Source: a virus
Direction: 5' to 3' (one strand)
Length of the DNA: 64,000 nt
IMG/VR virus record: IMGVR_UViG_3300019762_000005
Coordinates: 28,676 to 92,675 of that record
The notes below the pieces were generated by a model. The model saw only the letters and a list, made by a program, of their open reading frames with translations. It ran no database searches and had not been told where the DNA came from. This document shows, in pieces, positions 8,869 to 37,165 of this stretch; position 1 is the stretch's first letter; every line of letters begins with the position of its first letter. The position numbers and the translations under genes were made by a program.

Positions 8869-9036
8869 ATGAAAATAGCATTATCATTAATATTAGTAGG
8901 AGTAGTATTCGCAATATTATTCATAGCCTTTATGGCTACATTAGGAGCGATCAACAACCTTATGTTGAGTAACTCATTTATAGCAGTAATAATAACTGCG
9001 TCGGTATTATTATACTTCAATAGAGAAAGAAAATAA
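8869..9036 (+). CDS. Small two-TM membrane protein (55 aa, below ORF-track cutoff)
   Basis: MKIALSLILVGVVFAILFIAF...FIAVIITASVLLYFNRERK. Confidence 0.6.
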   Translation: MKIALSLILVGVVFAILFIAFMATLGAINNLMLSNSFIAVIITASVLLYFNRERK

Positions 9037-9058
9037 CAACCCTTAAAAATAGATTAAG

Positions 9059-9271
9059 ATGAGATATTCGCAACAAATAATAATTGAAGACTTGAAAAAG
9101 CTTATAGGAAAAAATGTACACTTCTCTAATTATGGAGGAAGAAACATAGATATTAAGCATGTATTTGCTGACATTGAATGTGATCAGACAATATATGTAG
9201 CTGATGATAATGTAGCTTTAGCTATTAACATCTCTGCATTAAAGTATAAAATAAGACAAGAGTCTAAATAA
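9059..9271 (+). CDS. Hypothetical protein flanked by 19-bp direct repeats
   Basis: 70-aa ORF. Confidence 0.6.
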   Translation: MRYSQQIIIEDLKKLIGKNVHFSNYGGRNIDIKHVFADIECDQTIYVADDNVALAINISALKYKIRQESK

Positions 9272-9293
9272 CAACCCTTAAAAACCTAGAGAC

Positions 9294-9536
9294 ATGAAAC
9301 ATTTACCATTTGTATTAATTGTAATATCAATATTATCAATATTAACAGCGTTAATCTTCAGTGAGACTGGAGTAGCTGTAACGTTAGGAGTAACAATATT
9401 ACCTATATCATTAAAGATATGGATAGAGCAAGGTCATTATAATGACAAGAAAGTAGTTAATCGCTACAAGTCAAGACATGCTTATGATAGAATTAATAAC
9501 CCAAGAGCTGTTAATCGCTATAAACAACAAAGATAG
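9294..9536 (+). CDS. Small membrane protein
   Basis: Two hydrophobic segments and a basic tail. Confidence 0.65.
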   Translation: MKHLPFVLIVISILSILTALIFSETGVAVTLGVTILPISLKIWIEQGHYNDKKVVNRYKSRHAYDRINNPRAVNRYKQQR

Positions 9537-9538
9537 TT

Positions 9539-9796
9539 ATGAATCCAATGTATGTATTTGAGTCACCTATATCTTCAGTGGAAGAGAGTAGCGAGACTAT
9601 CAGAAGAATAGCAGTATTCACAAAGAGACAAGGCTTTAAGTTTATCAAAAAGAATCAATCTCCTCTTGCTAAAAGTAAGCTTAATATCAGCGGAATGAAA
9701 CATGGTGAACATCTTATGTTTCAAGGAAGAATATTAATTAGAATCCGAGAGGATCAATGCGTAGGTGCTGAAATAAAAACAGTTAACCTAAAGTAA
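9539..9796 (+). CDS. Hypothetical protein
   Basis: 85-aa ORF. Confidence 0.6.
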   Translation: MNPMYVFESPISSVEESSETIRRIAVFTKRQGFKFIKKNQSPLAKSKLNISGMKHGEHLMFQGRILIRIREDQCVGAEIKTVNLK

Positions 9797-9898
9797 ATAT
9801 TTAAGGAGCGCATAATGCGCTATAATCAGAAGTGGTGTTGTAGTAGTCATCACTTCTGATTTAAAAACAAACTACTAATAAAACCAATCCCTATTATT

Positions 9899-10300
9899 AT
9901 GGCAAAGCCAAGAACATTAAAATCGTTAGAAGAATTAGCAACAGTATTCGCAGTAATGAATAAAGAAATTGCTGAGAAGCAAAGTTCTCATGTATTATAC
10001 ATTGAGATGTTAAGAAGACAGTTAGTTAGCACTCATGAGTTTCATATGCTAATCGACTCTATTAATTCCGAAAAGAAAGAACCAAAGAAAGAAATTAAAG
10101 TTCCTTCTAAAGAAGAAGTTGAAGGTATATTAGCTGAAATGGCACTTGAAATATTACCAATAGATGTTGACAAGACGGTTGAAACTATTAGAGATCATAT
10201 TTCAAAAGGAATAAGCTTTGATGATATTAGAGCTAAAATGAAACATGAGATGCAAAAAGCATCAATATTAGGTATGATTAAATCATCAATAGAAAATTAA
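9899..10300 (+). CDS. Hypothetical helical protein
   Basis: 133-aa ORF. Confidence 0.65.
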   Translation: MAKPRTLKSLEELATVFAVMNKEIAEKQSSHVLYIEMLRRQLVSTHEFHMLIDSINSEKKEPKKEIKVPSKEEVEGILAEMALEILPIDVDKTVETIRDHISKGISFDDIRAKMKHEMQKASILGMIKSSIEN

Positions 10301-10477
10301 GATTAAAAGATCACAAATAAGAAATGAGTAGTAGTACAGAGGAGAGAACGCTGTACTACTATTTATACTACACACTCAGGTAATAGCGAGCTGTTCAAAT
10401 GAAATGTAAAGAAGTCTCAACCAAATCAAAACCAAAAATTAAAACCAGGGTTATAAAACCCACAACAAGAAAAGATT

Positions 10478-10996
10478 ATGAAAAACACAAACACAAGTCC
10501 GAAAGCATTATTTGTTAAAGCTGTTACTTCAGTAGATGAAGAAAACGAACAATTAGTAGATAAGAATGGTAGAGAGTATAAAAGAATTACTGTCTCAAAA
10601 GTAGATTATTCTTTGGTCTTTAATCCTATTACAGGTAAAGACGAAGTTGCCGTTGGTAAAACTAAAGAATCAGGATTCAAAGCCTATAAAAAGAACTATT
10701 TAGATCGTGAAGATTTTGGATGGACTCTTGAACCAGGTAAAATGATCCTTGGTGATTTAATAACTAAGAATACTACTCCTTATGAAATTGATGGTAGAAT
10801 TGTTAATACAGCTACAGCTTTAGTAGTTGCTAACACTAACGAACCTGAAAACTTTAAAAGAGCTACTGCAGCTGCATTTAAAGATTTAGCATCACAAGGT
10901 AAGGATCAACCAGTGAGATTCACGGTTATCGAAGACGTTGTTGAGGAAGCTGCAAGTGCTGTAGTATCTGCAATTCCTGAAGGAATGGAGGGGTAA
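10478..10996 (+). CDS. Hypothetical protein (beta-rich)
   Basis: 172-aa ORF followed by a terminator. Confidence 0.7.
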   Translation: MKNTNTSPKALFVKAVTSVDEENEQLVDKNGREYKRITVSKVDYSLVFNPITGKDEVAVGKTKESGFKAYKKNYLDREDFGWTLEPGKMILGDLITKNTTPYEIDGRIVNTATALVVANTNEPENFKRATAAAFKDLASQGKDQPVRFTVIEDVVEEAASAVVSAIPEGMEG

Positions 10997-11019
10997 TTAC
11001 CTTCATTAAATGTTGAATA

Positions 11020-11054
11020 AAAAGACCTATAGCATAAGTTATAGGTCTTTTTTT
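11020..11054 (+). terminator. Intrinsic terminator
   Basis: AAAAGACCTATA-loop-TATAGGTCTTTTTTT. Confidence 0.75.
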
Positions 11055-11056
11055 AT

Positions 11057-11167
11057 AGTCAAGTGGCGGAGTTGGTTTCAACGCTCCACTAAATAAAGTG
11101 GCAACTGAGTAGTTTAATTATAGCTAATTAAATAAAAGGTACGCAGGTTCGAATCCTGCCTTGACTA
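11057..11167 (+). ncRNA. tRNA-like RNA with aberrant anticodon loop and extended variable region
   Basis: Acceptor AGTCAAG/CTTGACT, D arm TGGCGGAGTTGG..AACGC and T arm GCAGGTTCGAATCCTGC. The anticodon stem CCACT/AGTGG closes a 6-nt loop and is followed by a ~40-nt insert with a hairpin. Confidence 0.7.
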
Positions 11168-11382
11168 CAAGTTAAATAGATAATTCCGAAGAAGGAATAT
11201 ATGTAGCTGACTAATAATACTAATCGTTGTGCAATCTTACTATAAAACCTGCATAGGTAAACGTGAGTGGTAAATAGCAGAAGTGCTAACAACGTGATAT
11301 AAGGGTAGACTCTATGTGTAAGTTCGAATGCGAAGCACTAGAGCTACCCTTTATTTATTTATTTATTAAAAAACAAAACCCA

Positions 11383-11586
11383 ATGAAAAAAGCAATTATT
11401 ATAATAACAACAATCATAGCAACTAGTTGTGCTAATGTTGACAATTCAGAAGACAAGATTATACACGATCAAGGAAGAATAAAATTTATAGACTTTAAGA
11501 GTGAAGGCGCTATAGACTTACATATAATCGAAATAGACGGACAGGAGTATCTTGTTAGCTATAGAGGAGGAATTATAAAACTATAA
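11383..11586 (+). CDS. Small lipoprotein
   Basis: MKKAIIIITTIIATSC lipobox. Confidence 0.7.
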   Translation: MKKAIIIITTIIATSCANVDNSEDKIIHDQGRIKFIDFKSEGAIDLHIIEIDGQEYLVSYRGGIIKL

Positions 11587-11600
11587 TAAAACAAACCCTC

Positions 11601-11939
11601 ATGAAGTATAATTTTACAGTAAGAGTACATGCCGACGAAGATAGAAGTAGCGGAGGTTTAAGTGACATTAGATACATTGATATATCTGGAATAGTCTTAA
11701 TATCTAAGCCAGAGAAATTCGGAGGAGTATGTTTTCATAAAGGAAATCAGAAAAAACACAAGTACACTATGAATTTGTCAAAGAATTTTGCATATGTGGC
11801 AGGGTCTATTAACTATCCAATACTGTGGATAAATAAAGGATTCATTGATATAGTTGTTAAAAACTTCCCAAGAAAACCAGAGTTGAATCTTAATGAATAC
11901 CAATTAAAGTACAGAAAAATAGAAATTATCAACCAATAA
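11601..11939 (+). CDS. Hypothetical protein
   Basis: 112-aa ORF. Confidence 0.6.
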   Translation: MKYNFTVRVHADEDRSSGGLSDIRYIDISGIVLISKPEKFGGVCFHKGNQKKHKYTMNLSKNFAYVAGSINYPILWINKGFIDIVVKNFPRKPELNLNEYQLKYRKIEIINQ

Positions 11940-11950
11940 AAACTACACCC

Positions 11951-12379
11951 ATGAATATACATAAAGATTTAGAGAAGATTACTATGATTGCAATGCATTA
12001 TGCTAAAGAGCATAAATGCAACTACTATATCATAATGACGAATCCTGATGAAAATGGAGAGTTTCAAGACTCTAGCACTTATGAATATGTTGCTGCAAGC
12101 TATTTTGAAAAAGAGAGAACTTGCAAGGTTATATCTACTACTGAAGAACTATGGAGCAGAGAAGAGATAGAGCCAGGCAGTCCTTTTAAACAGATCGACC
12201 ATGAAGCTTTCATAAATGAAGTAAATAGTAGTTATAAAATCAGGAACTATTCATCTCCAACAGAAGAAAGTAGGTACAGAAGACCACAACAATACAGGAG
12301 AGAGTCTCCAAAGATTCAGAGGAACAGTAAGTGTCCATGTGAGTCAGGAAAGAAATACAAGCATTGTTGCTTGAAATAA
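11951..12379 (+). CDS. SEC-C motif protein
   Basis: C-terminal RNSKCPCESGKKYKHCC. Confidence 0.8.
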   Translation: MNIHKDLEKITMIAMHYAKEHKCNYYIIMTNPDENGEFQDSSTYEYVAASYFEKERTCKVISTTEELWSREEIEPGSPFKQIDHEAFINEVNSSYKIRNYSSPTEESRYRRPQQYRRESPKIQRNSKCPCESGKKYKHCCLK

Positions 12380-12388
12380 CTAGATATT

Positions 12389-12856
12389 ATGACAGATCAA
12401 TTAGTAAGCAAGAAAGTAGCAATACTAGCTAGAAAGAAAGCGTTCAACAAGCCTTGCAGGTGGGTTCACTATATGCAAGAAGAGCAAGAAGTGCCAAGTA
12501 AAATAGATTCAGAAGAGATATTTAACTCTGATATAGAAAAAAAGATAGTTGCTACTCCTACTCAGACATCACTATCGACTTGGATTAGAAAGATGAGAGG
12601 TGTTCATATTGAAATTGGAAGAAGTGCATCTGGATACTATTGGGATATGTGTATGTCAGATTCAGGAACTAATCTAGGTGGTAGCGGAATTACTGGTCCA
12701 AATGATAGTGGTCAATGGGATGAATATGAAGATGCTTTAGAAGACGCATTAGAACTTCAATTATCAATGGACTTACCAGAAAACTTCAACTCAATAAAAC
12801 ATTGGAGTAATTATGCTCATTTTGCACAAAAGAAAAGAAAAAAGAATAACAAGTAA
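12389..12856 (+). CDS. Hypothetical protein
   Basis: 155-aa ORF; PTQTSLSTWIRK motif. Confidence 0.65.
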   Translation: MTDQLVSKKVAILARKKAFNKPCRWVHYMQEEQEVPSKIDSEEIFNSDIEKKIVATPTQTSLSTWIRKMRGVHIEIGRSASGYYWDMCMSDSGTNLGGSGITGPNDSGQWDEYEDALEDALELQLSMDLPENFNSIKHWSNYAHFAQKKRKKNNK

Positions 12857-12879
12857 AACATTTAAAAATCAACAACAAC

Positions 12880-13719
12880 ATGGCTATAAAGAAGAAAAAA
12901 CCAATGAAAATAGTAGGACAAGAAGCTTTAATAAAAGAAGTAGGAAATGTCTTCAAGGTATTTAAAGCTTCAGAAGGAGAGTTAAGACCACATTTTATAC
13001 TTACTGGACCAAGTGGTTCAGGTAAGACAGTAACAATTCAAAGTATGTGTGATGAGCACGAGTTGAATTATGTAGAAATTAACGCTGCTCAGTTAACAAA
13101 AGAAGGAACGAGTGGTAATTCATTATCAAAAGCTTTAGGTCCTTTAGGTCAAAGCCAAGGAAAGATGACAGTATGTTTTGTCGATGAATTCGATAAGCTT
13201 TTTATATCTGGAAATAGTAATGATAGTTCAGCACATGAATCATCAACTGGAGTTCAGAATGAATTTCTAAAAGTATTAGAATCAGATACTACGCAAGTAT
13301 TTGGTGATTATGGAAAATTCATTAGCATTCCTATCAAGAATGTATTATTCATTTTTGCTGGAGCGTTTAATGGAGAAGAGCATATCACAGTTGATAGACT
13401 TCGAGAGATAGGAATTAAGACAGAGTTTTTAGGTAGAGTTGGATTAGTGTATAATACTCAAAAGCTTTCATTGGAGGCTTTGTATACAATAGTTGAAAAC
13501 TCTCCTTTACTTGCTAAATATCTTTTGATATATAAAGACGTAAAACGAGAAGATGTAGAATCAACTATTAAAGACTATATTAAAAATAATTTCGAGTTGA
13601 ACACTTTAGGTGCTAGACTAATATCTACGCTTATTCATCAATACTTCATTAAAGGAGGTAAAATTGGTGAAGACGAGGTTAAAGAATTAACTTTTCAAAA
13701 GACTTTAACTCTTGACTAG
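12880..13719 (+). CDS. ClpX/HslU-like AAA+ ATPase
   Basis: IVGQE, GPSGSGKT, FVDEFDK, GVQNEFLKVLE, NVLFIFAGAF, EFLGRV and LGARL motifs. Confidence 0.85.
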   Translation: MAIKKKKPMKIVGQEALIKEVGNVFKVFKASEGELRPHFILTGPSGSGKTVTIQSMCDEHELNYVEINAAQLTKEGTSGNSLSKALGPLGQSQGKMTVCFVDEFDKLFISGNSNDSSAHESSTGVQNEFLKVLESDTTQVFGDYGKFISIPIKNVLFIFAGAFNGEEHITVDRLREIGIKTEFLGRVGLVYNTQKLSLEALYTIVENSPLLAKYLLIYKDVKREDVESTIKDYIKNNFELNTLGARLISTLIHQYFIKGGKIGEDEVKELTFQKTLTLD

Positions 13720-13723
13720 AGAT

Positions 13724-14049
13724 TAAAACATACAGTTGTAGGATTAAAACCAGCGACTACTAACAATGAAAATTGCAGCTAGGTCTGTATGTTTTATAAT
13801 TATAAATCACTAAAAGGAAAGCTTTATTAGACCATCAAGACTACATCAAATTCTTAGAAGCTGAATTAGAAATGTAAAACATTAACTACAGAATGAACAG
13901 AGTGCCTGTGCAGAAATGCAATTTAACATAGTCAGGTTCGATCAGAGGAATGACTCGGGAATAGGTTCAAGAAAGGTGATAAACAGGATATTTAGTTATC
14001 AGGCCTATTATTGATTAGCGTTAGGACTATCATAGTCATTCTGTAGTTA
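13724..14049 (+). ncRNA. Putative structured RNA domains closed by long perfect stems
   Basis: TAAAACATACAG(13724)/CTGTATGTTTTA(13796), 12 bp; TAACTACAGAATGA(13883)/TCATTCTGTAGTTA(14049), 14 bp. Confidence 0.55.
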
Positions 14050-14199
14050 TTAGTAAAGTGAGAGCCAAACACTTAAAAAGCGAGGTTCGTATATGACCTG
14101 TAAACAAAGATATAATAGTAATGCTAGAAATCGCTATGAAAATTAGTGAGCTGCTCGGAAAAGAAGCGGTCAGTAGTATTATGATAAACAAACTGTAAA

Positions 14200-14273
14200 G
14201 TGTCGTTAGTAGAGTGGCCTAGCACGTCTTGTGTAAAAACGAGGAAACATTGGTTCGAATCCAATACGGCATT
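14200..14273 (+). ncRNA. tRNA-like RNA with non-canonical anticodon loop
   Basis: Acceptor GTGTCGT/ACGGCAT and T arm ATTGGTTCGAATCCAAT. The anticodon loop TGTAAAAA is 8 nt and has no clear U33. Confidence 0.65.
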
Positions 14274-14288
14274 CAATTATTATTAAAA

Positions 14289-14371
14289 GGGGAGGTAAAG
14301 GCAACAATATAGGTTTAGTAGATTTCTATTAGATAGGGGTCTAAATGCAGGTTCGAGTCCTGTCCTTTCCA
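14289..14371 (+). ncRNA. tRNA-like RNA lacking D stem; G3.U70/A73 acceptor
   Basis: GGGGAGG/CCTTTCC-A acceptor and T arm GCAGGTTCGAGTCCTGT. Confidence 0.6.
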
Positions 14372-14409
14372 CTTATTACAAAAAAACACATTTAAAAAAA
14401 AACAATCCT

Positions 14410-14613
14410 ATGAAAGGACTAAGACAAAAGTTTGAAAAAGATGAAATAGTAGGTCTTGATAAAGATTTAGCAACTAGTAGTGAAGTCAAAGTGGTTTCAC
14501 AATCATCAGGAAGGTTATATACAACTGTTACAGCAAGCGACTATAGATGGTCTGTTATGACGTATAGGTTAAGTAAATTGAATCCTGAGAAAGAAGAAGA
14601 TATTAAAACCTAG
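14410..14613 (+). CDS. Hypothetical protein
   Basis: 67-aa ORF. Confidence 0.6.
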   Translation: MKGLRQKFEKDEIVGLDKDLATSSEVKVVSQSSGRLYTTVTASDYRWSVMTYRLSKLNPEKEEDIKT

Positions 14614-14617
14614 CGAA

Positions 14618-15217
14618 ATGATAGTAGATATTAAAGATGAAAATAGTTCTGAGGAAAGAAGTGCAGAAATAAACGATCTTTTACCAAAAGTTCCGTTAAC
14701 AACTTCAATTCATAAAAAGATTGAAAAGCTCCTATGTCCTTTGATGGTGAAAGCTATAAAAGCTGAACTTGAGATATACAGAGCCTATCCTAAAAGAATG
14801 AATGAAGATCCAAAAGTGGCTACTAAAACATTTGACACTAGGAATCCTTCAACATGTTTTGTTGGTAAAGGATTTAAAATGAATTCTTCCTTGGTAGATA
14901 AGGAGTTAGCAATATATAGGAGCAAAATAGGAACTATAGAACACAAAGAATGGGGTAACTGTACCTTGTTAGAAATATGGGGAGGCGACCATTTTGCTGA
15001 ACATCCTAAGATGGTTAAAGCTGCATTTTCTTATGGAGTTGGACTTCGTGATACTATGCCTACAATAAAGATTTACGTTAATCCTCTTGTATATACTGAA
15101 AAATCAGGAAAGACTAAGTACACTCAGGAGGAAATCGAAGAAAGAGAAGCGTTTGACCTAATGGTCGCTAAAGCTCAGTTATTTGGAGTAAAAGAACCTA
15201 AAAAACGAAGAAGGTAA
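14618..15217 (+). CDS. Hypothetical protein
   Basis: 199-aa ORF. Confidence 0.7.
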   Translation: MIVDIKDENSSEERSAEINDLLPKVPLTTSIHKKIEKLLCPLMVKAIKAELEIYRAYPKRMNEDPKVATKTFDTRNPSTCFVGKGFKMNSSLVDKELAIYRSKIGTIEHKEWGNCTLLEIWGGDHFAEHPKMVKAAFSYGVGLRDTMPTIKIYVNPLVYTEKSGKTKYTQEEIEEREAFDLMVAKAQLFGVKEPKKRRR

Positions 15218-15429
15218 TGTATAAAACTGAACCACATATTCTAATTCATAAAGAAACGAAAGAGTTTGTGTACTACGATGAAGATGGAGTAAGCTAAACT
15301 TCTAAAGACGGAAAGAAAGCTAAAATATTTATGGGATTAAAAAGTGCTAACTCCTATAAGAATGTAATGTTGAGTGACGATTACAAAGCATATAAAGTAT
15401 CAAAGATAATCGTTAAAGAAAATTTATAA
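15217..15429 (+). pseudogene. 70-codon gene with in-frame TAA at 15295
   Basis: TAATG-coupled start; MYKTEPHILIHKETKEFVYYDEDGVS*TSKDGKKAKIF...KENL exactly fills the gap between neighbours. Confidence 0.55.
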
Positions 15430-15436
15430 ATTAGAT

Positions 15437-16132
15437 ATGAAAAAAATTGAAAGCAAATTGAAAGAATTTCTTACTTCTGTTTCTAGTGGAAATGGATATG
15501 GACATGGATATGGAGATGGAAATGGAAATGGACGTGGACATGGATATGGAAATGGACGTGGAGATGGAAATGGAGATGGAAGTGGAGATGGATATGGAGA
15601 TGGAAGTGGAGATGGATATGGAAATGGAGATGGGAGCGGAGATGGGAGCGGAGATGGATATGGACATGGATATGGAATCATAAGTTTTTGTGGAGATCCT
15701 GTAGTTTATATTGACTCCACAAAAACTGTGGTAAGTCACATTAAAGGAAAAATACTTCAAGGATATATATTAGATGAAAGTTTAAGATTAACTCCTTGTT
15801 TCGTTGTTAAAGAAAAAGATGTATTTGCTCATGGAGAGTCTTTAAAAAAGGCTTATAAATCTTTAAAAGAGAAGATCTTATTAAAAAACCCCATTGAAGA
15901 TAGAATCCAAGCTTTTGTTGACGTATTCGAAAAAGGAATAAAATACAAAGCTGAAGAGTTTTACAACTGGCACTTTATTTTAACAGGTAGTTGTCAGATA
16001 GGGAGAGATATTTTTTTAAAAGAAAACGACATATCATTATCTAGTAAGATGACAGTGAAGGAATTTATTGAAAAAACAGAAGATAAATATCAGGGAGATA
16101 TTATAAAACAATTAAAATTAAAATATAAATAA
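15437..16132 (+). CDS. Gly-x repeat protein (GNGYGDGSG) with C-terminal domain
   Basis: About 30 Gx dipeptides encoded by GGANNN repeats; FAHGE and WHxxLTGSC motifs. Confidence 0.8.
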   Translation: MKKIESKLKEFLTSVSSGNGYGHGYGDGNGNGRGHGYGNGRGDGNGDGSGDGYGDGSGDGYGNGDGSGDGSGDGYGHGYGIISFCGDPVVYIDSTKTVVSHIKGKILQGYILDESLRLTPCFVVKEKDVFAHGESLKKAYKSLKEKILLKNPIEDRIQAFVDVFEKGIKYKAEEFYNWHFILTGSCQIGRDIFLKENDISLSSKMTVKEFIEKTEDKYQGDIIKQLKLKYK

Positions 16133-16134
16133 TT

Positions 16135-16425
16135 ATGATAGGCAAAAAAGTTATCACAAGAAATGATGGAGCTGGAGTGTTTTTTGGAGAATTAGTCTCA
16201 GCTAAAAAGGACAAAGTAATACTTAAAAATGTTAAAAAGCTATATTATTGGTCAGGAGCGGCAGCAATTGAACAATTAGCTGTAGAAGGAGTAAAGTCGC
16301 CAGAAAAATGTAAATTTACAGTAGTTGTAGAGGAAATGGAAATAGGTCAAACATTGCAAATAATTCCATGTACAAAAGAAGCTATAAAAAATATTGAAGC
16401 CGTTCCTACTTGGAGAATTGATTAA
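16135..16425 (+). CDS. DUF6948-like phage protein, partner of the Gx-repeat gene
   Basis: IGKKVITR..AGVFFG..LYYWSGAA...LAVEG..IIPCT. Confidence 0.7.
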   Translation: MIGKKVITRNDGAGVFFGELVSAKKDKVILKNVKKLYYWSGAAAIEQLAVEGVKSPEKCKFTVVVEEMEIGQTLQIIPCTKEAIKNIEAVPTWRID

Positions 16426-16445
16426 AGTATCAAAAATAAATTACC

Positions 16446-16766
16446 ATGCTCGAAATAGGAAACAAAGTAATATGTGTAGATGCAAGCATCCAGAATCACA
16501 TGATAGAAGAGCTATCTAAAGACGTTCCTAATTGGGTGAAGCAAGACGAAATATATACCGTCAGAGGCTTTAACAACAACAAAGGAATAGTAGTAGGTGT
16601 CCTTTTAGAGGAAATAAGTAATCCAATAAAATTCTTTAAACTAACAGGTGAATATCAAGAACCTGCTTTTGCTACTTGGAGATTTAGAAAACAAGAAGAA
16701 GCATATATTGATTCGCTAGAAATTGAAGAAGAAAGTATTAGAGAGTTTGAGGTTTTAGAAAACTAA
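16446..16766 (+). CDS. Hypothetical protein (SH3-like beta fold)
   Basis: IGNKVICVD...IYTVRG...LLEEI.NP...F..WRFR. Confidence 0.65.
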   Translation: MLEIGNKVICVDASIQNHMIEELSKDVPNWVKQDEIYTVRGFNNNKGIVVGVLLEEISNPIKFFKLTGEYQEPAFATWRFRKQEEAYIDSLEIEEESIREFEVLEN

Positions 16767-16800
16767 CCCCTCCGCCTCCACAAGAAAAAAAAAGAAAGCG

Positions 16801-17148
16801 ATGTTAAAAATTAAATGGAAAAAATCAAAAGGAGGAAGAGCTTTTGAGCACATATTAGAAGGGTGGGTTGGAAATCTACACTCTTTCAATATAGAAGGTC
16901 GTTTATGTGTAACTGACCTAAGAGGGATTAGAAAAACCCCTTGGCAAGCACCAAAACACTACATCATAGATGAGGTAGATAACAAAAGAGAGTTTGCTAA
17001 AAACATGGCTTATGAAATTTTAAACAACATAAATCCAGAAGTTTACAAAGCTAACTTAGAAAAGCAAAGAATTGATAACGAGAGAACTCAAAAAGTCATG
17101 AAAGAGGCACAAGACTTTTTAGATAAGATTCAAAAAAAACAACAATAA
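16801..17148 (+). CDS. Hypothetical protein
   Basis: 115-aa ORF. Confidence 0.65.
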   Translation: MLKIKWKKSKGGRAFEHILEGWVGNLHSFNIEGRLCVTDLRGIRKTPWQAPKHYIIDEVDNKREFAKNMAYEILNNINPEVYKANLEKQRIDNERTQKVMKEAQDFLDKIQKKQQ

Positions 17149-17150
17149 CT

Positions 17151-17360
17151 ATGAAAATATTTGAAGTTAAAGAATTTACAGATGGAGGTCCTAACGATAA
17201 AGGAGTCTTAATTGGCTACGAAAAAGGAGAGTCAAGTGAACAGTTAAAAAAGAAAAATGGAATAACTCATGGTTTCATATCTTTTCATGAAATATCTCAA
17301 GAGGAATATAACCGAAGAAAAGAAGGAGCTCGTAGACATTTTGAGTCGTTCACCTTTTAA
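17151..17360 (+). CDS. Hypothetical protein
   Basis: 69-aa ORF. Confidence 0.6.
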   Translation: MKIFEVKEFTDGGPNDKGVLIGYEKGESSEQLKKKNGITHGFISFHEISQEEYNRRKEGARRHFESFTF

Positions 17361-17386
17361 TTATTAACAATATTAAAAACTATATT

Positions 17387-17569
17387 ATGACAATAGGAGA
17401 AATCAACTTACTATTAATATTATCAATCTGTATTGTAATAGGGTTATTTACTAGCGATTTTCTATGGTTTTTACAACCTCTAAGAAGCTGGGAAGGAAGA
17501 ATACTAATATTAATGCTAATAATATTAACAACAGCTCTATCGTACTTAATATGGTGGATGAATCATTAA
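17387..17569 (+). CDS. Small two-TM membrane protein
   Basis: Two hydrophobic helices. Confidence 0.6.
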   Translation: MTIGEINLLLILSICIVIGLFTSDFLWFLQPLRSWEGRILILMLIILTTALSYLIWWMNH

Positions 17570-17687
17570 AATATTAACATTTATAAATTATCCTCCTTAT
17601 GTATTTGAAAGAGTACGCATTATAAAAACTAGGCTGTAGAGGTAACGCGCAGTATAGGGGAAGTTTATAAATAAAACAAAAAGACTC

Positions 17688-19466
17688 ATGAAAGACGAAG
17701 AATTATTAAGAAAAGCAAATTGGCTGTATCCAAAAGGCACAGTATTTAACTCTTTAGGAGGGGTGAAAAACATTACAGTTGATGAGTTGAACTTAAAAAA
17801 ATCAAACACAAGAACCATAGAATGTAAAGAGGGATACCTTTATAATAAAGTAGACGATAAATGGGCTGAGATAGTTTCAAGACCAAATCAATACTTCCGA
17901 GTGTCAGATGTAGGAGAATACTACCCTTCAAGATCAGAAGGAAAAAAATATCCAGGATACATACCTGAAAAATCAATGACTACAGGTCTTTATAAAGTCA
18001 TAGGAAGAGAGTTTTCAGAAAATATAGGAGAACTTTTAGTACTTTCAAATAAAAGTGGAGTGTTTTTTTACAAAGGAACTTCAAGACATCTTGAAGAAAT
18101 TTCTAAAGAAGAGTATGGAGGTACACCTGCAAATAGGTATAAAGGAGATTTAAAAGGATTCCCTACTGAAGTAGTAGAGAAAATGCTAGAATTTCAAGTA
18201 GCTCAAGGTAATAAAAGAGATGTAACTGTGTTTGAAAATGATAAACGGGGGGTAAAAGACGATGGTGGTTTTGATTGGCGTAGTGACAACATTGTAGGTA
18301 TTCCAGATTTTTTCAGTAGAGTTATAGGTGAAAGAGATTTTAGCTTGTTCTTTAAAGTATTTCCTAATCCAGAGACTTTCTCAGGAAAGATAAAGGGATG
18401 GCCTAAAGAAATTGTACATGCTATGATCTCTAACCAAGTAAAACAAGGTAACAAGCCAGATAAATCTATATTCGAAGAAATTCCATCAAGAAATCTTTAT
18501 AATAGAGGATTTGACTGGGATAAATCTACAGAAGGTTCACTTTTATGGGAAAAAGTTTTAGCAAATGGAAATCATAAAGCTTTCTTTGATAAAGATATTG
18601 AAGAAAGTAAGCCTGATGTAGATCTAAAAAACTTAGAAGAAGTAAAGAAAGCTATATTATCTGGAGAATTGTGGATAGATAATAATTCTAAAAAACTTAA
18701 ACCTGAGGATCTAAAAAGTTTAATTTCAGAAGATACCAGAAGTAGGTGTAGTTACAAATATTACTATAAAAATTCTTTGAATGATAATATAGGGTTTTCA
18801 AATTCAGATAAGAAGAAATCGTTAATACCAACTATAGAAGCTAAAGATCTTCAAAAAATGTTGAATGTACGTGAAGAGTTTAAAAAAGGAGAGTATATAG
18901 TCCTAATAGAAGATAATGGAAGTTCAGCTTTTAAAGGAAATCACTGTTATAAACAAGCTTGCAATAGAGGTCATATTTACGTAGAAATATCTTCTAGTCA
19001 AATTAAAAACGGTCAATGGGCTATTTATAAATTCAAAGACAAAGACAAAACTTGGAGGTATGCTACGATGTTAGAAATAGCAGAGTACAACGAAAGAGGC
19101 AAGCCTTATGACGTTAGTGAAGTGAAGCCTTTAGAATTTAAAACTGTGCCAAGATCAGCACACGCTTCTAAAGGAGGTAGACCTTCTAGCTTTGGACAAA
19201 TTGTATTGTATGGAACTGGAGGTGAAGTGAATGGAAAAGGTTTCTTTGAAAAACAATTTATAACAGGTGTTGATCCAATAATTGAAGATTGCTCCGACTT
19301 TTTAACAGAGTATCCTTTTACTACTGAAGAGTCGTTCAAGAAGAAGAATTGGTCAAGACAATTAGTATCAGATCATTTTTCACCAATAAAAGAAAAACAA
19401 GAGGCAGAGGTAAGCCTTCGATTACCTAGTGAAATAAATATTTACAAACATTTAAAAAACCATTAA
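17688..19466 (+). CDS. Mosaic multi-domain protein with internal repeat; paralog of 23267-25048
   Basis: Duplicated KGFPTEVVEKM..QV.QGNK.D..FE..GFDW unit; shares YPxGTxF and WRYAT..EI..Y...GKPYDV with the paralog. Confidence 0.75.
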   Translation: MKDEELLRKANWLYPKGTVFNSLGGVKNITVDELNLKKSNTRTIECKEGYLYNKVDDKWAEIVSRPNQYFRVSDVGEYYPSRSEGKKYPGYIPEKSMTTGLYKVIGREFSENIGELLVLSNKSGVFFYKGTSRHLEEISKEEYGGTPANRYKGDLKGFPTEVVEKMLEFQVAQGNKRDVTVFENDKRGVKDDGGFDWRSDNIVGIPDFFSRVIGERDFSLFFKVFPNPETFSGKIKGWPKEIVHAMISNQVKQGNKPDKSIFEEIPSRNLYNRGFDWDKSTEGSLLWEKVLANGNHKAFFDKDIEESKPDVDLKNLEEVKKAILSGELWIDNNSKKLKPEDLKSLISEDTRSRCSYKYYYKNSLNDNIGFSNSDKKKSLIPTIEAKDLQKMLNVREEFKKGEYIVLIEDNGSSAFKGNHCYKQACNRGHIYVEISSSQIKNGQWAIYKFKDKDKTWRYATMLEIAEYNERGKPYDVSEVKPLEFKTVPRSAHASKGGRPSSFGQIVLYGTGGEVNGKGFFEKQFITGVDPIIEDCSDFLTEYPFTTEESFKKKNWSRQLVSDHFSPIKEKQEAEVSLRLPSEINIYKHLKNH

Positions 19467-19467
19467 A

Positions 19468-19863
19468 ATGGCAGGAAAAAAATTAATGACAAGGTACAAA
19501 GATGAATTGAAGAAATCTTCAGAAGACATCTTAATTGAAACTTTAGAGCATCGTGTAGAAGACTTCAGAGATAATACTGATGAAACTATCGACAAGCTAA
19601 AAAGAGAGAAGGAAGTAGAATTTCCTAAATTAATTAAAAGAGCCAAAGCTAAGGTAAGCAAAGCAAAAGAAGATCTTAAGAAGGTTAAAACTTTTGGACC
19701 TATGAGTCATAAAAACTTTGACTCATACATAAGTGCGGTCATCTCTGCTGAAAAAGAAGTTTCGGTAGTAGAATCAGCATTGAACGTTCTTGAAGGTCAA
19801 TTGAGCTCTACAGAAGCTCAATTAGCTTTTTATGAAGATATTAAAGAGTCAATTTCTGACTAA
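19468..19863 (+). CDS. Coiled-coil protein
   Basis: Heptad-rich, 131 aa. Confidence 0.7.
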   Translation: MAGKKLMTRYKDELKKSSEDILIETLEHRVEDFRDNTDETIDKLKREKEVEFPKLIKRAKAKVSKAKEDLKKVKTFGPMSHKNFDSYISAVISAEKEVSVVESALNVLEGQLSSTEAQLAFYEDIKESISD

Positions 19864-19869
19864 TTGATA

Positions 19870-20245
19870 AAGGAACTGAAACCCTTTCAGCCTTAATATT
19901 GAAATTACATAGTAATATGTAGAACACCTCCGATGTAATCCGTATGCGGAGCAAAGGTGTTGGGAGTCGGGAGCAAGGCTTAAAGGTCGTGATCCATCTA
20001 TTCGTCGCGAAAACAAGTATTTAGTTACTGAGACAATAGGTGGATGCTAAGAAAAGGAACACCTCTGTAACGAAGACTAATTGAATCGCTATTATTAGTG
20101 AGAATATTACTTAGTAAGAACAAGTGTAGGTTTTTAATGTGCTGAAAATAGACAGGAATAATAGTCACCTGCGTAGCTATATTGTTACTACCGTCGTTTA
20201 ATCGTCGTGAGTTTTAAACATATCAAACATTTGCGTGCACATTTT
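19870..20245 (+). ncRNA. Putative multi-domain structured RNA cluster
   Basis: About 400 nt without ORFs; closing stems CCTTTCAGCCTT/AAGGCTTAAAGG, ATCCATCTATT/AATAGGTGGAT and AATGTGC/GCACATT. Confidence 0.5.
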
Positions 20246-20275
20246 TAATTTTACAATTCAACAAAACAATATATT

Positions 20276-20470
20276 ATGTATCACATCAAGAGAGATGGAG
20301 CTTTATTCTGTCAAACAAAAAGAAACAAATCTTTTATTAAAGCTAGGTATAACACAATCTCCTATAAAGATGCTCACAAGTTAAGACTTATGAATGGATG
20401 CTGTGGCGTATGCAAGAAAGTGTATTTTGAGAAAGTCTCAAAAGAATTAATAGTTGTAGAAACAGAATAA
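20276..20470 (+). CDS. Small Zn-finger-like protein
   Basis: H...C...CGVC. Confidence 0.55.
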   Translation: MYHIKRDGALFCQTKRNKSFIKARYNTISYKDAHKLRLMNGCCGVCKKVYFEKVSKELIVVETE

Positions 20471-20481
20471 TTTCTATATAT

Positions 20482-20742
20482 TTGAAAACAATTATGACAA
20501 CAACAATAATCATATCTAAAATACTATTTGTCGTATCCTTATGGGTTATAGCTGTTGTGGCAGATTACTTAAACAACTTAGACAATAGAGGTCTGAAACT
20601 AAAGAGGTCGCAGAACATACTCTATATATTCAAACAGCCGACACTAAGGTCTTGGATATATAAGATAGATCTGGGGTTTACACCTTGGATCGTTTACCAT
20701 GATGGGTTAACATACGACCAGTGCATTACTCTGAAGAGCTGA
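20482..20742 (+). CDS. Small membrane-anchored protein
   Basis: N-terminal hydrophobic helix. Confidence 0.5.
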   Translation: MKTIMTTTIIISKILFVVSLWVIAVVADYLNNLDNRGLKLKRSQNILYIFKQPTLRSWIYKIDLGFTPWIVYHDGLTYDQCITLKS

Positions 20743-20811
20743 GTGCTGTTGTAAAAAAGTATAAAAAAAAACGGGTAGGACTAAATCGCCCATGAAATAA
20801 TATTGAAAACT

Positions 20812-20852
20812 AAAAAAAACCTCTTTGTATGATACGCAAAGAGGTTTTTTTT
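20812..20852 (+). terminator. Intrinsic terminator
   Basis: AAAAAAACCTCTTTG...CAAAGAGGTTTTTTT. Confidence 0.7.
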
Positions 20853-20870
20853 ATGCTTAAAAACAAGATT

Positions 20871-21272
20871 ATGAAAAGAAATAAAAAAGTAGTAATAGTT
20901 TGTGGTCCAGGAATATTATCTCACATTAGAGAAGTAAATGCAGCTGCTAAAGTGAAAGCTCTATCGTCTAGCGATTTAAGAACGATAGATAGTAAACCAA
21001 GATTTGTAACTTCTTTAGCAGGTGCAAAACAACTAGAGGCGTGCCTTGAGAAAGAATTCAATAATACCCTTAGAATGCCTGCTGAACTACTAATAAAAGC
21101 TAATCCAGGAGCAATAGGTCCTAATGTAAAATTGCTAGAACATTATGATAAAGCTAATTACTTTAGAGGAAAAGTTAGCAAGGTTAACTGTAAGAAAGAA
21201 GAAGCATCATTTGCTAAAGCAAGAAAGAAACGTAAAAAAACAAAAAAATGTCGAAAAAGGAAGAAAAAATAG
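20871..21272 (+). CDS. Hypothetical protein with basic tail
   Basis: Probable start MKRNKK, downstream of the terminator. Confidence 0.6.
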   Translation: MKRNKKVVIVCGPGILSHIREVNAAAKVKALSSSDLRTIDSKPRFVTSLAGAKQLEACLEKEFNNTLRMPAELLIKANPGAIGPNVKLLEHYDKANYFRGKVSKVNCKKEEASFAKARKKRKKTKKCRKRKKK

Positions 21273-21532
21273 AAATGCCAAAAAAGCATACAGATCTAGT
21301 TGGTACTAAGAGGATATTTTCTGGAGGTCTTTTTTCTAGCAATAGAGATGAGCCAGAAGCAGAATACGACATCTTAAAATGGAGATGGGGCAGTGCTAGT
21401 ATATGTGACATGAAGACTATGAAGCTTAAGCATCCAACTATAGAATACCTCATCAAGAAGGAAGGAATGAAGCGTAGCAGATGGACCAGAGGTTTTCCTG
21501 TTATAGAGATAGAACTTATAGACGAACATTAA
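21248..21532 (+). CDS. Hypothetical protein
   Basis: 94-aa ORF. Confidence 0.6.
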   Translation: MSKKEEKIEMPKKHTDLVGTKRIFSGGLFSSNRDEPEAEYDILKWRWGSASICDMKTMKLKHPTIEYLIKKEGMKRSRWTRGFPVIEIELIDEH

Positions 21533-21544
21533 AATACTTTGATT

Positions 21545-21802
21545 ATGTCAGAAAAAACAATACCAGTATCAGTAAAAAGAGAACTGAAAACTTTAGGAGT
21601 TATGTATGGTGAATCTTTTTCTGCTATAATGGAAAAGAAATGCACCTATATATACATAGAAGAGGATTTATCTAATCTGTCAAAATACGAGATTGATTTA
21701 ATGTTTAACATTTACCCAGCTCTATTAGACTACAGTTATATATCTAAAAAAATACAAAATGAGATCCAAGAAGCATTGGATTTTGTAAAAGACACATTAT
21801 AA
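21545..21802 (+). CDS. Hypothetical protein
   Basis: ORF in the operon. Confidence 0.55.
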   Translation: MSEKTIPVSVKRELKTLGVMYGESFSAIMEKKCTYIYIEEDLSNLSKYEIDLMFNIYPALLDYSYISKKIQNEIQEALDFVKDTL

Positions 21803-21806
21803 TCAA

Positions 21807-22028
21807 GAGGGAATGACGGAATGGTAGACGTATAGCTTATCGGGCTAGAATGGAAAGGAGACGTGCTTAGGGTGCACAAGTCAGGTAAATACGAGTTACC
21901 TAAGACTTTCCAATAAGATTGATGAAAATATTAACGATTATCCGTACTAAGCTACCTGTTTACAGGATAGATAGCGTGCTGACTAACATCAATTATAATT
22001 CGTGCAGGTTCGATTCCTGCTTCCCTTA
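21807..22028 (+). ncRNA. 222-nt RNA with tRNA ends and a ~165-nt structured insert
   Basis: Acceptor GAGGGAA/TTCCCTT, D arm TGACGGAATGGTAGACGT and T arm GCAGGTTCGATTCCTGC; internal helices TGGAAAG/CTTTCCA and TTGATG/CATCAA. Confidence 0.7.
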
Positions 22029-22047
22029 CTAAAACAACAACAACGAC

Positions 22048-22296
22048 ATGAAATTAGAGATTCATCCAGACGGAGAGTGGAATACAGAAAGATATGAATA
22101 CAAAGGTAGAACTATAGAAATCAAATCTAGGGATGACCACGGAATAAAGGCTCATTGTTACCACCAAGGTAAGGTAGTGTTTACCCAAAGATTTGTATTT
22201 ATTAGACCAGCAAGACTTCTTAAGAGAATGGAAAGAAGAATTGACATGTGGATTAGTGGAGAATGGACTCCAAAGAAGTTACTAAAACAGAGATAA
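22048..22296 (+). CDS. Hypothetical protein
   Basis: 82-aa ORF. Confidence 0.6.
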   Translation: MKLEIHPDGEWNTERYEYKGRTIEIKSRDDHGIKAHCYHQGKVVFTQRFVFIRPARLLKRMERRIDMWISGEWTPKKLLKQR

Positions 22297-22297
22297 T

Positions 22298-22528
22298 ATG
22301 TGGAATGTAAAAAAAATAGAAGATTTGAACTTTGTTTTAATATCTAGTCACAATCAATGGTGTCATTTTAGAGGTCATGGATTTGATGTTCATGTAAATT
22401 TAAACACTAAAAACGGAAGTGGCAATTACTTCAATTTCCATTCCTACAAATCAAATTTTAAAGGAAATTTTAAAGCTATAATAGAAACAGAAGAAGAATT
22501 CAAATCTTTGTTAAAAATGATACAATAA
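22298..22528 (+). CDS. Hypothetical protein
   Basis: 76-aa ORF, coupled. Confidence 0.6.
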   Translation: MWNVKKIEDLNFVLISSHNQWCHFRGHGFDVHVNLNTKNGSGNYFNFHSYKSNFKGNFKAIIETEEEFKSLLKMIQ

Positions 22529-22746
22529 TGAAATTCATATCAACATCAGAAAGCTTTCCAAAAAACAACAATGTAAAAAACGTGTTAGTCAAAACAATAA
22601 CAGGTAGATACCTTGTTACTAGGTATTCGACGTATAATAGGTTTTTTAAATTTGATCAATACGACGAACCAGAATTTTGGCAATCAGGAGGTAAAACTTT
22701 TAAAAAAGCAAGCATCGTATCTTGGTGCTATATAACAGAAGATTGA
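22528..22746 (+). CDS. Hypothetical protein (DUF551-like)
   Basis: FISTSESFP...VLV...IVSWCYI pattern. Confidence 0.55.
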   Translation: MKFISTSESFPKNNNVKNVLVKTITGRYLVTRYSTYNRFFKFDQYDEPEFWQSGGKTFKKASIVSWCYITED

Positions 22747-22767
22747 CATTTTAAAAACAACAACAAC

Positions 22768-23259
22768 ATGAAAACATTAAAAATATTATTAGTACTAGCA
22801 ATTGGATTAATGATTCAATCTTGCTCAAAAGAAAAGAAACTTGAAAGACAAGTTGAAAAGAAAGGATGCCTTGGAGGCGGAGTAGTAGGCTACGTAGTAG
22901 ACGAATGTACATTAACAATACCTAATATCATATCTGTAAATGGAGATGGAGTTAACGAAATGTTTTCGATAACGGTTCACAACCTAAGTGAAGATGATAC
23001 TATTATAGAGAGATTAATAATCACTCATAATGGAGGTGCGTTGATGGATAACAATACTAGAGTTTGGCAACCGATAAGAAGCATCGTGGATGAAGGTTTT
23101 TACACCTACAGATACAGAGGGTCTATTAACGGAGAGACGTTTGATTTACAAGGAGATTTCACACTTGTAAAATACCAAAGAGCCATTAAGAAATGTGAAC
23201 AGTGTATAACCGTATACGGAAACAGTATCGCTAATGATCCTGGATTAAGTTGTAAATAA
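22768..23259 (+). CDS. Lipoprotein with T9SS type-B (CHU_C / gliding-motility C-terminal)-like domain
   Basis: Lipobox IQSC; IPNIISVNGDGVNEMF; G.YTYRY...GDFTLVK. Confidence 0.7.
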   Translation: MKTLKILLVLAIGLMIQSCSKEKKLERQVEKKGCLGGGVVGYVVDECTLTIPNIISVNGDGVNEMFSITVHNLSEDDTIIERLIITHNGGALMDNNTRVWQPIRSIVDEGFYTYRYRGSINGETFDLQGDFTLVKYQRAIKKCEQCITVYGNSIANDPGLSCK

Positions 23260-23266
23260 CAATGTT

Positions 23267-30368: not shown

Positions 30369-31166
30369 ATGGATTGCACAAGGTTGAAAGATTATGATTT
30401 AATAATACTTAATACAAGCGCAGGTAAGGATTCTCTAGTAATGATGTGGGACATCTTAAGAAGAGCAAAAAAGGAAAACTACCCAATTGAAAGAATAGTG
30501 TGCTCACATCAAGACTTAGGTAGGTTCGAATGGCCAGGAACAAAAGTTCTTGTTGAGACTCAAGCTAGTATATTTGGATTAAAGACTTATTATTCTAAAA
30601 GAAGAAACAAGGACGGATACGAAGAAAACCTGCTTGAATATGTTTTAAGAAGAAGGAAGTGGCCATCTAATAAACAAAGATGGTGTACTAGCGACTTTAA
30701 AAGAGGTCCTGGAGCAAGAGTAGTGACTAAATTAACTAAAGATTTAGGCAAATGCAAAGTTTTATATGTGTTCGGATTTAGAAGCCAGGAAAGCCCTGCA
30801 AGAGCTAAAAAAAATGTTATAGAAATAAACAAAAATCTATCAACAAAAAACAGGACGGTACATACTTTTAATCCTATTCTAGGGATGGACATAAAGAAAG
30901 TTTGGAGAATAATAAAATTATTCAAACTTCCTTACCATTATGCTTATGACTTAGGAATGCCTAGACTTTCTTGTATATTTTGTATATTTTCTCCGTTTGA
31001 CGCTTTAGTTATAGCTGGTATCGAAAATATGGAATTACTGGAAGAATATATTTCTGTTGAAGAAGAAATAAATCATACTTTTAGAGATAAGTTTTCGTTA
31101 AAAGAGGTTAGAAAAAGCATAGAAGAAGGGTATAGACCTAAAGGAATTCCAGACTGGGTTATGTAA
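30369..31166 (+). CDS. PAPS-reductase-family (PP-loop) protein
   Basis: SAGKDS, RWCTSDFK, GFRSQESPARA and RLSCIFCIF motifs. Confidence 0.85.
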   Translation: MDCTRLKDYDLIILNTSAGKDSLVMMWDILRRAKKENYPIERIVCSHQDLGRFEWPGTKVLVETQASIFGLKTYYSKRRNKDGYEENLLEYVLRRRKWPSNKQRWCTSDFKRGPGARVVTKLTKDLGKCKVLYVFGFRSQESPARAKKNVIEINKNLSTKNRTVHTFNPILGMDIKKVWRIIKLFKLPYHYAYDLGMPRLSCIFCIFSPFDALVIAGIENMELLEEYISVEEEINHTFRDKFSLKEVRKSIEEGYRPKGIPDWVM

Positions 31167-36537: not shown

Positions 36538-37165
36538 TTTAAGTTTCGGTATACCAAAAAAAGCAGTAGTAATTTCATGGGATTTTAACCCTGAAATAGC
36601 AGCAATCAAAATCTCTAAAAAAGCTGAGAAAGGAAAAGCTACAAAGATAAGTCTTAACGCTAAAGGAGCTGCAATGCTTACTGGAGAAGGAGAAGATGCT
36701 TCTTTAGAGCAAATAGCTTTGAGCTTTGACGAAGAGAATAAAATCATGAGAGTGGCAAATATTAAGGTGGAGTCTTCTGTTAAGTTGACAAAATCCAATC
36801 CTCGTTCTTTCTCAAATTCAAGAACATACTTATATATTTGTGAGTTTTTAGGTTTGGACGGAGAAGAAGATGCTATTTTCGAATTAGTAGCTGAAGAGAG
36901 AGAATTCCCTTGTGTAGTATTAAGACCTATTGGAGCACCTATAGATTCTGCAGGTGAATCAGCTACGGAAGAAAATGATACTAAAGAAACTGCTCCTGAA
37001 GAGAGTCCAGAAAACTTACAGCCAGTTGATGCTGCTGAAGAAACTGAAGAAACAGAAGAAACATCTCCTGAAGCAGATAGTCCTAGTGAAGAAGAGGATG
37101 GTGGAGTAGATTCGTCTGATGTAGACAGCTCTGTTACTCAAGAAGACGAGGATGATTGGGACTAA
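36530..37165 (+). CDS. Hypothetical protein with long acidic tail ending DDWD
   Basis: 211 aa. Confidence 0.75.
   Translation: MTDLSFGIPKKAVVISWDFNPEIAAIKISKKAEKGKATKISLNAKGAAMLTGEGEDASLEQIALSFDEENKIMRVANIKVESSVKLTKSNPRSFSNSRTYLYICEFLGLDGEEDAIFELVAEEREFPCVVLRPIGAPIDSAGESATEENDTKETAPEESPENLQPVDAAEETEETEETSPEADSPSEEEDGGVDSSDVDSSVTQEDEDDWD

Follow-up and report, generated by a model that had tools for sequence, protein, structure and literature searches.

tRNA-shaped genes without a usable anticodon in a phage genome that has no canonical tRNA gene: candidate non-decoding carrier RNAs

The stretch of DNA considered here, 'the window', is 64,000 nt long and comprises bases 28676–92675 of the 92,675-bp IMG/VR virus record IMGVR_UViG_3300019762_000005; it is 35% G+C and, unless another source is named, positions below are window positions. 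It contains four elements with the shape of tRNA genes, E1–E4 (Table 1), all of them on the coding strand in gaps between genes, and these are the sole tRNA-like elements of a genome in which there is no canonical tRNA gene. To have four tRNA-shaped genes, none with a usable anticodon, and not a single tRNA for decoding is unusual. The reading we favour, with moderate confidence and on sequence comparison, is that E1, E4 and probably E3 are genes for tRNA-shaped carrier RNAs that do not decode, and not broken tRNA genes. Retained in the frame are the acceptor stem, the elbow, the 15:48 pair, a U at position −1 and the discriminator; dropped are the parts for decoding.

Table 1. The four tRNA-like elements and features adjoining them, in window positions
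Feature	Position	Strand	Description
Terminator-like hairpin	11024..11056	+	8-bp stem, 8-nt loop, seven-T run; ends 2 nt before E1
E1	11057..11167	+	111-nt leucine-type tRNA frame
ORF-free stretch	11168..11380	+	210 nt after E1, ending in a long imperfect hairpin and then a T-rich run; no homologue found
ORF-free stretch	13720-14199		480 nt between the ATPase gene and E2
Candidate collapsed family element	13930..13955	+	Family 5' acceptor word running straight into a T-loop word, then the last five bases of the 3' acceptor word
E2	14200..14273	+	74-nt tRNA-sized element
E3	14289..14371	+	83 nt, without D stem, G3:U70
E4	21807..22028	+	222-nt leucine-type frame, ~170-nt insert

In its standard mode ARAGORN called just E2 in the window, as a tRNA-??? 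with no anticodon. Against the Rfam tRNA model (RF00005; gathering score 29) E1 scored 39.3 and E2 33.8 bits, E3 fell below the gathering score at 25.6 bits, and of E4 the T arm alone matched (13.6 bits); the same search of the whole genome gave nothing besides the four. A custom scanner calling for a 7-bp acceptor stem, U8 and a 5-bp T stem with a TTCRA-type loop, all within 400 nt, returned exactly E1–E4 from both strands of the 92.7-kb genome, and an average of 0.53 from 30 shuffles, and T-arm hairpins that contain G/C are genome-wide confined to the four. By the Rfam search and the scanner, the lack of any normal tRNA, which a first-pass annotation made from the letters of the window had remarked on, extends to the whole 92.7 kb. 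(E4 lies outside the range of that annotation, 11057–14371, though its text named it.)

The acceptor stems of the four pair at 28 of 28 positions, five of them G-U, so that the 7-bp acceptor stem initially ascribed to every element is real. The T stems pair at 20 of 20; the T arm had been described as perfect throughout, which is right as to pairing and not strictly so for E3, where one pair is G-U. All four have U8 and a C directly after the discriminator, and three of them (E1, E2 and E4) a matched 15:48 pair. What none of them has is a canonical 5-bp stem and 7-nt loop with U before, and a purine after, a three-base anticodon. This, too, had been seen at first pass, as had the individual shapes that reappeared on folding: a 6-nt loop plus a long insert in E1, an 8-nt loop in E2 and the missing D stem of E3. 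An alternative fold with a canonical anticodon loop, the outcome named at that stage as contrary to the proposal, appeared in none of E1–E4 under every fold tried, and the intron mode of ARAGORN yielded models just with mismatched anticodon stems or at 85–90% of the normal threshold.

Could these genes decode after all, E2 as a quadruplet, frameshift-type tRNA by virtue of its 8-nt loop, and E1 and E4 once their inserts had been spliced out by some unknown route? E2 can be modelled by ARAGORN with a 4-base anticodon, and in intron mode the program draws E1 as a suppressor with a UUA anticodon (ochre-stop) and a 20-nt intron. We find decoding scarcely credible. Apart from the lowered thresholds and mismatched stems of the intron models, the inserts of E1 and E4 (20–170 nt) have no group I catalytic core within them, though the Rfam scan does detect this phage's real group I intron elsewhere (its sole Intron_gpI match, 35963–36315). 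E2 lacks the U before the anticodon and has two of four D-stem pairs, and among the 61 open reading frames (ORFs) of the window there is no gene for a splicing endonuclease or RNA ligase, nor for RNA repair, a CCA-adding enzyme or SmpB. Since the ORFs are intact under the standard code, no suppressor is needed.

The evidence that carries the carrier-RNA reading comes foremost from E1 and the company it keeps. Where an anticodon arm would be, a fully paired 5-bp stem of E1 closes a 6-nt loop (or 4 bp close 8 nt), and past that hairpin comes a variable region of ~40 nt containing a 9-bp hairpin; its D arm is of type II, its discriminator A73 and its 15:48 pair G15:C48. IMG/VR was searched with a pattern consisting of a leucine-type D-arm word, a gap of 48–78 nt, which is beyond any normal class II tRNA, and a T-arm word. 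This uncovered a family of leucine-type frames on at least 119 contigs. From the matches listed, to which the family counts in this and the next paragraph refer, 121 elements of 97–127 nt were extracted, 107 of them unique. The acceptor stem was outside the search pattern, yet all seven of its pairs are present in 112 of the 121. One acceptor word is common to 58 of the 107 unique elements, there being 33 distinct acceptor stems in all, and A15:U48 occurs in 102 and A73 in 92 of the same 107. U occupies position −1 in 79% and C follows the discriminator in 94%, usually then AA, with a full CCA being encoded in just three of 98.

In a covariation alignment of 60 representatives, picked for complete acceptor pairing (a choice that slightly inflates the percentage paired and not the covariation), all seven acceptor pairs and the first T-stem pair change on both sides. 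Paired cells make up 99.8%, none of 500 shuffles reaches these values, and slid controls are ~35% paired. The middles, at 45–75 nt, are hypervariable and fall into 82 unrelated clusters. They fold better than dinucleotide shuffles (mean z −0.71, with 15% below −2), and within subfamilies some of their helices have compensated changes. A shared motif was looked for in them and dismissed: AGGTR-type words are enriched about threefold and their complements equally, which probably reflects nothing beyond G/C-rich helices. Half of the family loci also carry normal tRNAs, and no conserved partner gene stands beside family members, no protein family being found in more than nine of 118 loci. The family is not in Rfam, and a full-text literature search found no paper on it, which does not prove absence.

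R1, a covariance model of the family frame, was run on the window and on controls. Core family members score 76–77 bits, canonical phage tRNA-Leu genes 36.6–48.1 and RNA1 of phage T5 33.7; E1 matches over its full length at 59.8 bits (E 2.7e-14), higher than any of the canonical controls. Its acceptor differs from the commonest family word at a single pair, changed on both sides, and its T stem has one further compensated pair relative to the family. Common to E1 and the family are U8-G9, a D stem of three pairs and one mismatch, the T arm, A73, the C after the discriminator and a long middle that is no anticodon arm; E1 has G15:C48 where the family has A15:U48, and its 59-nt middle has no similarity to any family middle or other phage DNA. 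On these comparisons E1 is a divergent member of a large phage family of leucine-type frames, with the family evidence bearing on the class of element and not on these four copies.

E4 is also built on a leucine-type frame, with A15:U48, A73, U8-G9 and a D stem of three pairs and one mismatch. Its D-arm word is shared by family members and by canonical tRNA-Leu(UAA) genes of phages, and its acceptor is its own. The insert has several helices, is more than twice the usual family size and resembles neither the family middles nor other phage DNA. In architecture E4 is likely to be the same kind of element as the family. Matches of the inserts to repeats or antisense sequence of their own genome were not above chance, target-site duplications flank them in just two to three of 13 elements, and a search of ~1.2 Mb of related loci for homologues of the inserts or of flanking non-coding DNA gave T-arm matches only.

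E3 is of another type. Its acceptor has G1-C72, G2-C71, G3:U70 and A73, which is the identity set for alanyl-tRNA synthetase (AlaRS), an enzyme that ignores the anticodon. In the absence of a D stem, an 11-bp hairpin with three G-U pairs and a 3-nt loop stands ahead of the T arm, and the hairpin region folds with a z of −2.87. A pattern search for homologues of E3 found none, giving only other frames that are not G3:U70. One phage frame recurred (L326:8525, L328:1460 and L330:4694): its acceptor starts GGGGAGG, its D arm is normal and its anticodon arm over-long, for a total of 82–84 nt, and it, too, is not G3:U70.

The central proposal of the first-pass annotation was that the tRNA body is under selection although decoding has gone. 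For E1 it is supported, by the family on at least 119 contigs, the covariation of the acceptor and an R1 score above all tRNA-Leu controls; for E4, which shares that architecture, a selected non-decoding mimic is likely and for E3 plausible, and E2 is ambiguous. Several observations weigh against the carrier-RNA reading. At 43.5 bits (E 8e-10, full length) E4 is inside the range of the canonical controls, and R1 alone cannot tell it from a tRNA-Leu gene with a large insertion, because canonical tRNA-Leu genes score 36–48 bits too. E3, with 29.8 bits, scores no higher with R1 than a generic tRNA and is without a homologue found. The D loop of E1 is longer than, and unlike, that of the family, and immediately upstream of E1 is the terminator-like hairpin of Table 1 (overlain by a weak Rfam STnc370-like match), with no promoter evident in a promoter and terminator scan. 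Lastly, E2 looks degenerate.

The degeneracy of E2 brings in another explanation, that the four are pseudogenes, the decaying remains of a former tRNA cluster, and that their damage seems selective just by reason of what stays recognisable. The anticodon stem of E2 is 5 bp around an 8-nt loop (or 6 bp around 6 nt); the element has two mismatches in its D stem, four G-U pairs in its stems, U73, a G and not a U at the second loop position, and a loop that is a run of As of the wrong length. It does not match R1, and the D-arm/T-arm pattern retrieved no relatives for it from IMG/VR. Decaying tRNA or tRNA with an odd loop, it is ambiguous and speaks as much of decay as of design. E3 being below the Rfam gathering score also suits decay, and so, possibly, does the ORF-free stretch before E2. 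This has T-loop-like words at 13935 and 13964, the first of them in what may, in a post-hoc reading, be the collapsed remnant of a family element (Table 1); the stretch also contains a perfect 14-nt long-range inverted repeat (13883–13896 with 14036–14049).

Nor can comfort be had from the argument, made at first pass, that random decay would have eroded all arms alike. It is weaker than stated because an element that had lost its acceptor or T arm would have escaped notice, which is a real detection bias. Even so, we consider decay unlikely as the explanation for the set. Pairing is complete over the 48 acceptor and T-stem positions, against an aberrant anticodon region in every element; in E1 and E2 the anticodon stem is intact with just the loop being off, and what E3 and E4 have gained is well-folded inserts, which is not erosion. 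Moreover, E1 matches a family that is held by compensated changes across its contigs, and the genome is otherwise tightly packed.

How might a non-decoding carrier RNA come about? From the anatomy, family membership and frame covariation observed, we infer a course of processing, stability, possible charging and cargo carriage that would run as follows. The elements would be transcribed on the + strand with early and middle genes, and their acceptor, T arm, D/T elbow and 15:48 pair would lead host tRNA enzymes to treat them as pre-tRNAs, with RNase P cutting the 5' end and a 3' nuclease together with the CCA-adding enzyme finishing the 3' end. The product would be a stable L-shaped chassis showing a folded insert in place of the anticodon and variable arms and, having no anticodon loop, it would read no codon. 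Charging may be possible, by leucyl-tRNA synthetase for E1 and E4 and by AlaRS for E3, because the leucine-type features (A73, 15:48 and a type-II D arm) and the alanine-type ones (G3:U70 and A73) belong to synthetases that ignore the anticodon.

Since E2–E3 and E4 are wedged between genes, their excision would also cut the operon mRNAs. Might that be the whole purpose, RNase P and 3' tRNA nucleases cutting early polycistronic transcripts or freeing the RNAs of the ORF-free stretches (11168–11380 and 13720–14199), with the tRNA-like piece a mere by-product? The spacing is suggestive: E4 is 4 nt from the gene upstream and 19 nt from that downstream, and the E2–E3 pair, its members 15 nt apart, leaves 38 nt to the next start codon. 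E1 and E2 have long ORF-free stretches for neighbours, as do the three elements of a distant relative, the stretch following E1 may be in the same transcript as E1, and U at −1 is conserved in the family. For such punctuation, however, a frame of 59–75 nt would be enough, and inserts that are 170 nt long, or hypervariable and structured, go unexplained; in addition the 480-nt neighbour of E2 folds no better than shuffles (z −0.91) and has no homologues in the ~1.2 Mb of related loci. We therefore hold punctuation on its own to be very unlikely. In the region after E1, the 3' strand of its acceptor can alternatively pair with the next four downstream bases, which gives a closed hairpin (11120–11213); a YrlA / bacterial Y RNA candidate over the same positions (RF02553, 21.4 bits, E 1.3) was discarded, the gathering score being 69, and beyond the tRNA model no other Rfam family fitted the elements.

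A further possibility is that the elements are decoys, or sponges, for a host factor that binds the tRNA body – a toxin that cleaves or modifies tRNA, a synthetase, EF-Tu or SmpB. The chassis would then compete with host tRNA and the missing anticodon loop would make it uncleavable or inert. The parts retained are indeed those that body-binding proteins use, and tRNA-targeting defences as well as phage tRNA counter-measures are on record (PMC10264068, PMC13056530). For E3, with its G3:U70, A73 and no D stem, the decoy could take the form of an alanine-accepting mimic of the tRNA-like domain of transfer-messenger RNA (tmRNA), disturbing ribosome rescue. The closest cultured relative, Chryseobacterium phage MA9V-3 (PV245944.1), has in its early region a two-piece tmRNA, a feature already annotated as tmRNA (L045:12502-12726) that matches the permuted tmRNA model RF04321 at 64.7 bits, and two odd tRNA-like elements, of 89 and 97 nt, that also have G3:U70.

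We would give decoys but a modest chance, and nothing found here favours either them or processing signals, the two functions offered at first pass. The anticodon nucleases that are known recognise the anticodon loop, the very part that is missing here, and long, hypervariable, structured inserts are left without explanation. As to the E3 variant, the lack of a homologue is joined by the lack of any tmRNA: the tmRNA models (RF00023, RF04321 and their clan) have no match in the window at gathering scores, nor at E values up to 10 over 9000–24000, and the tmRNA mode of ARAGORN found none in the window. Among the matches listed, no defence-related gene is conserved beside family members.

Returning to carrier RNAs, one may speculate as to the destination of the cargo. 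A phage that had abandoned decoding tRNAs would keep chassis RNAs whose swappable inserts are brought to a host machine that binds tRNA, be it the ribosome, EF-Tu, a synthetase or a defence nuclease; in this specific form the idea is a long shot. If true, it would amount to a modular RNA platform for host takeover or counter-defence passed horizontally between phages that differ widely. The usual accounts of phage tRNA genes invoke codon supply, or evasion of defences that cut tRNA. A family on at least 119 contigs, with a near-constant frame, unrelated inserts and unrelated neighbourhoods, points instead to a widespread use of the tRNA shape for something other than decoding.

The kind of element to which E1–E4 belong is already known from phage T5, and they are new members of it. 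In the T5 record AY543070.1 three stretches are entered as misc_RNA, RNA1 (30501–30644) and RNA2 (32959–33083), both labelled 'tRNA-like stable RNA with unknown functions', and RNA3 (33877–33949), labelled 'putative tRNA-like RNA'. All three have the acceptor, D arm and T arm of a tRNA around an enlarged middle, the D arm of RNA1 being leucine-type. They are situated among 20-odd working tRNA genes, whereas the phage studied here has none, and frames and inserts are unlike in sequence; further, the alanine-type acceptor of E3, without a D stem, has no T5 counterpart. E3 on its own bears a likeness to the tRNA-like domain of tmRNA in its G3:U70, A73, absent D stem, intact T arm and the one long helix replacing the anticodon arm, but it lacks an mRNA-like part, pseudoknots and a model match, and the sequence of its D region is unlike that of tmRNA.

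A laboratory design offers the working model for the carrier-RNA reading. Ponchon and Dardel reportedly engineered a 'tRNA scaffold' for recombinant RNA in which the cargo replaces the anticodon arm and the tRNA body gives processing and stability; that is an artificial construct, and the natural inserts would be cargo by analogy only. T4 RNAC and RNAD, the species 1 and 2 RNAs, have tRNA-like ends. They are small RNAs from the tRNA region, with roles unknown (PMC3014915). A 2023 survey of viral genomes included 'tRNA or tRNA-like' candidates among 10,006 structured viral RNAs and did not describe the frame family (PMC10690425), and a 2026 preprint deals with three other bacterial tRNA mimics of different connectivity. 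What the stable tRNA-like RNAs of T5 and T4 are for has been an open question for some forty years. The present genome is a clean test case for it, with no canonical tRNA to confound matters, and it contributes two unusual forms, E3 with its alanine identity and no D stem, and the outsized E4 of 222 nt.

In distant relatives of this phage that carry the ATPase gene, elements whose anticodon arm is over-long or absent recur. The ATPase encoded before E2 has a best identity of 64–69% in IMG/VR, the JGI metagenomes, GTDB genomes and GenBank phages, and protein relatives at 70–74% identity are on contigs of 92–97 kb. The three closest IMG/VR contigs have, in the regions compared, only the ATPase and a helicase in common with it, and IMG/VR gave no relatives for two small flanking ORFs or for a neighbouring protein of 592 aa. 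In some 1.17 Mb around ATPase loci, 48 canonical tRNAs were counted, along with about seven tRNA-like elements that are convincing and have aberrant middles. The tRNA arrays of enterobacterial N4-like phages are ordinary, and the contigs nearest this phage have long, low-scoring elements, with singles of 115–124 nt. A 29.8-kb fragment has three elements (100, 119 and 114 nt) and no normal tRNA at all; in two of the three, which are paralogues, the acceptor, D and T arms are near-identical, with middles of 48 and 67 nt that cannot be aligned. At the other extreme of size, L090:2904-2962 (59 nt) and L149:2295-2361 (67 nt), which adjoin the same ATPase gene, lack an anticodon arm altogether while their acceptor, D and T arms are intact. 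The purine-pyrimidine match at 15:48 is found in 14 of 15 aberrant elements, the four of the window being counted among them. A different arrangement was seen at L188:1501-1624, on the IMG/VR contig of L038: a 124-nt tRNA-like gene with a canonical CUA anticodon arm (amber suppressor type), an extra region of ~55 nt before the T arm and an unusual T loop, TGCAAAT.

As for the genome at large, the record has exact direct terminal repeats of 123 bp, and its dense gene content divides by strand into three blocks. In the + strand block from ~7190 are small early-type ORFs, the ATPase (ClpX-like, of the AAA type; 12880–13719), a DNA polymerase and helicases. The − strand includes an ORF of 3618 aa that has a match in a PHROG of giant virion proteins. 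Among cultured phages the ATPase is closest to those of MA9V-3 (65% aa identity) and Tenacibaculum phage Gundel_1 (60%), with N4-like phages of enterobacteria next, and from these similarities alone we read the phage as N4-like and of Bacteroidota type. The group I intron at 35963–36315 (Rfam RF00028, 85.1 bits, E 3e-20) is between ORF fragments 35657–36037 and 36530–37165 and probably splits a gene.

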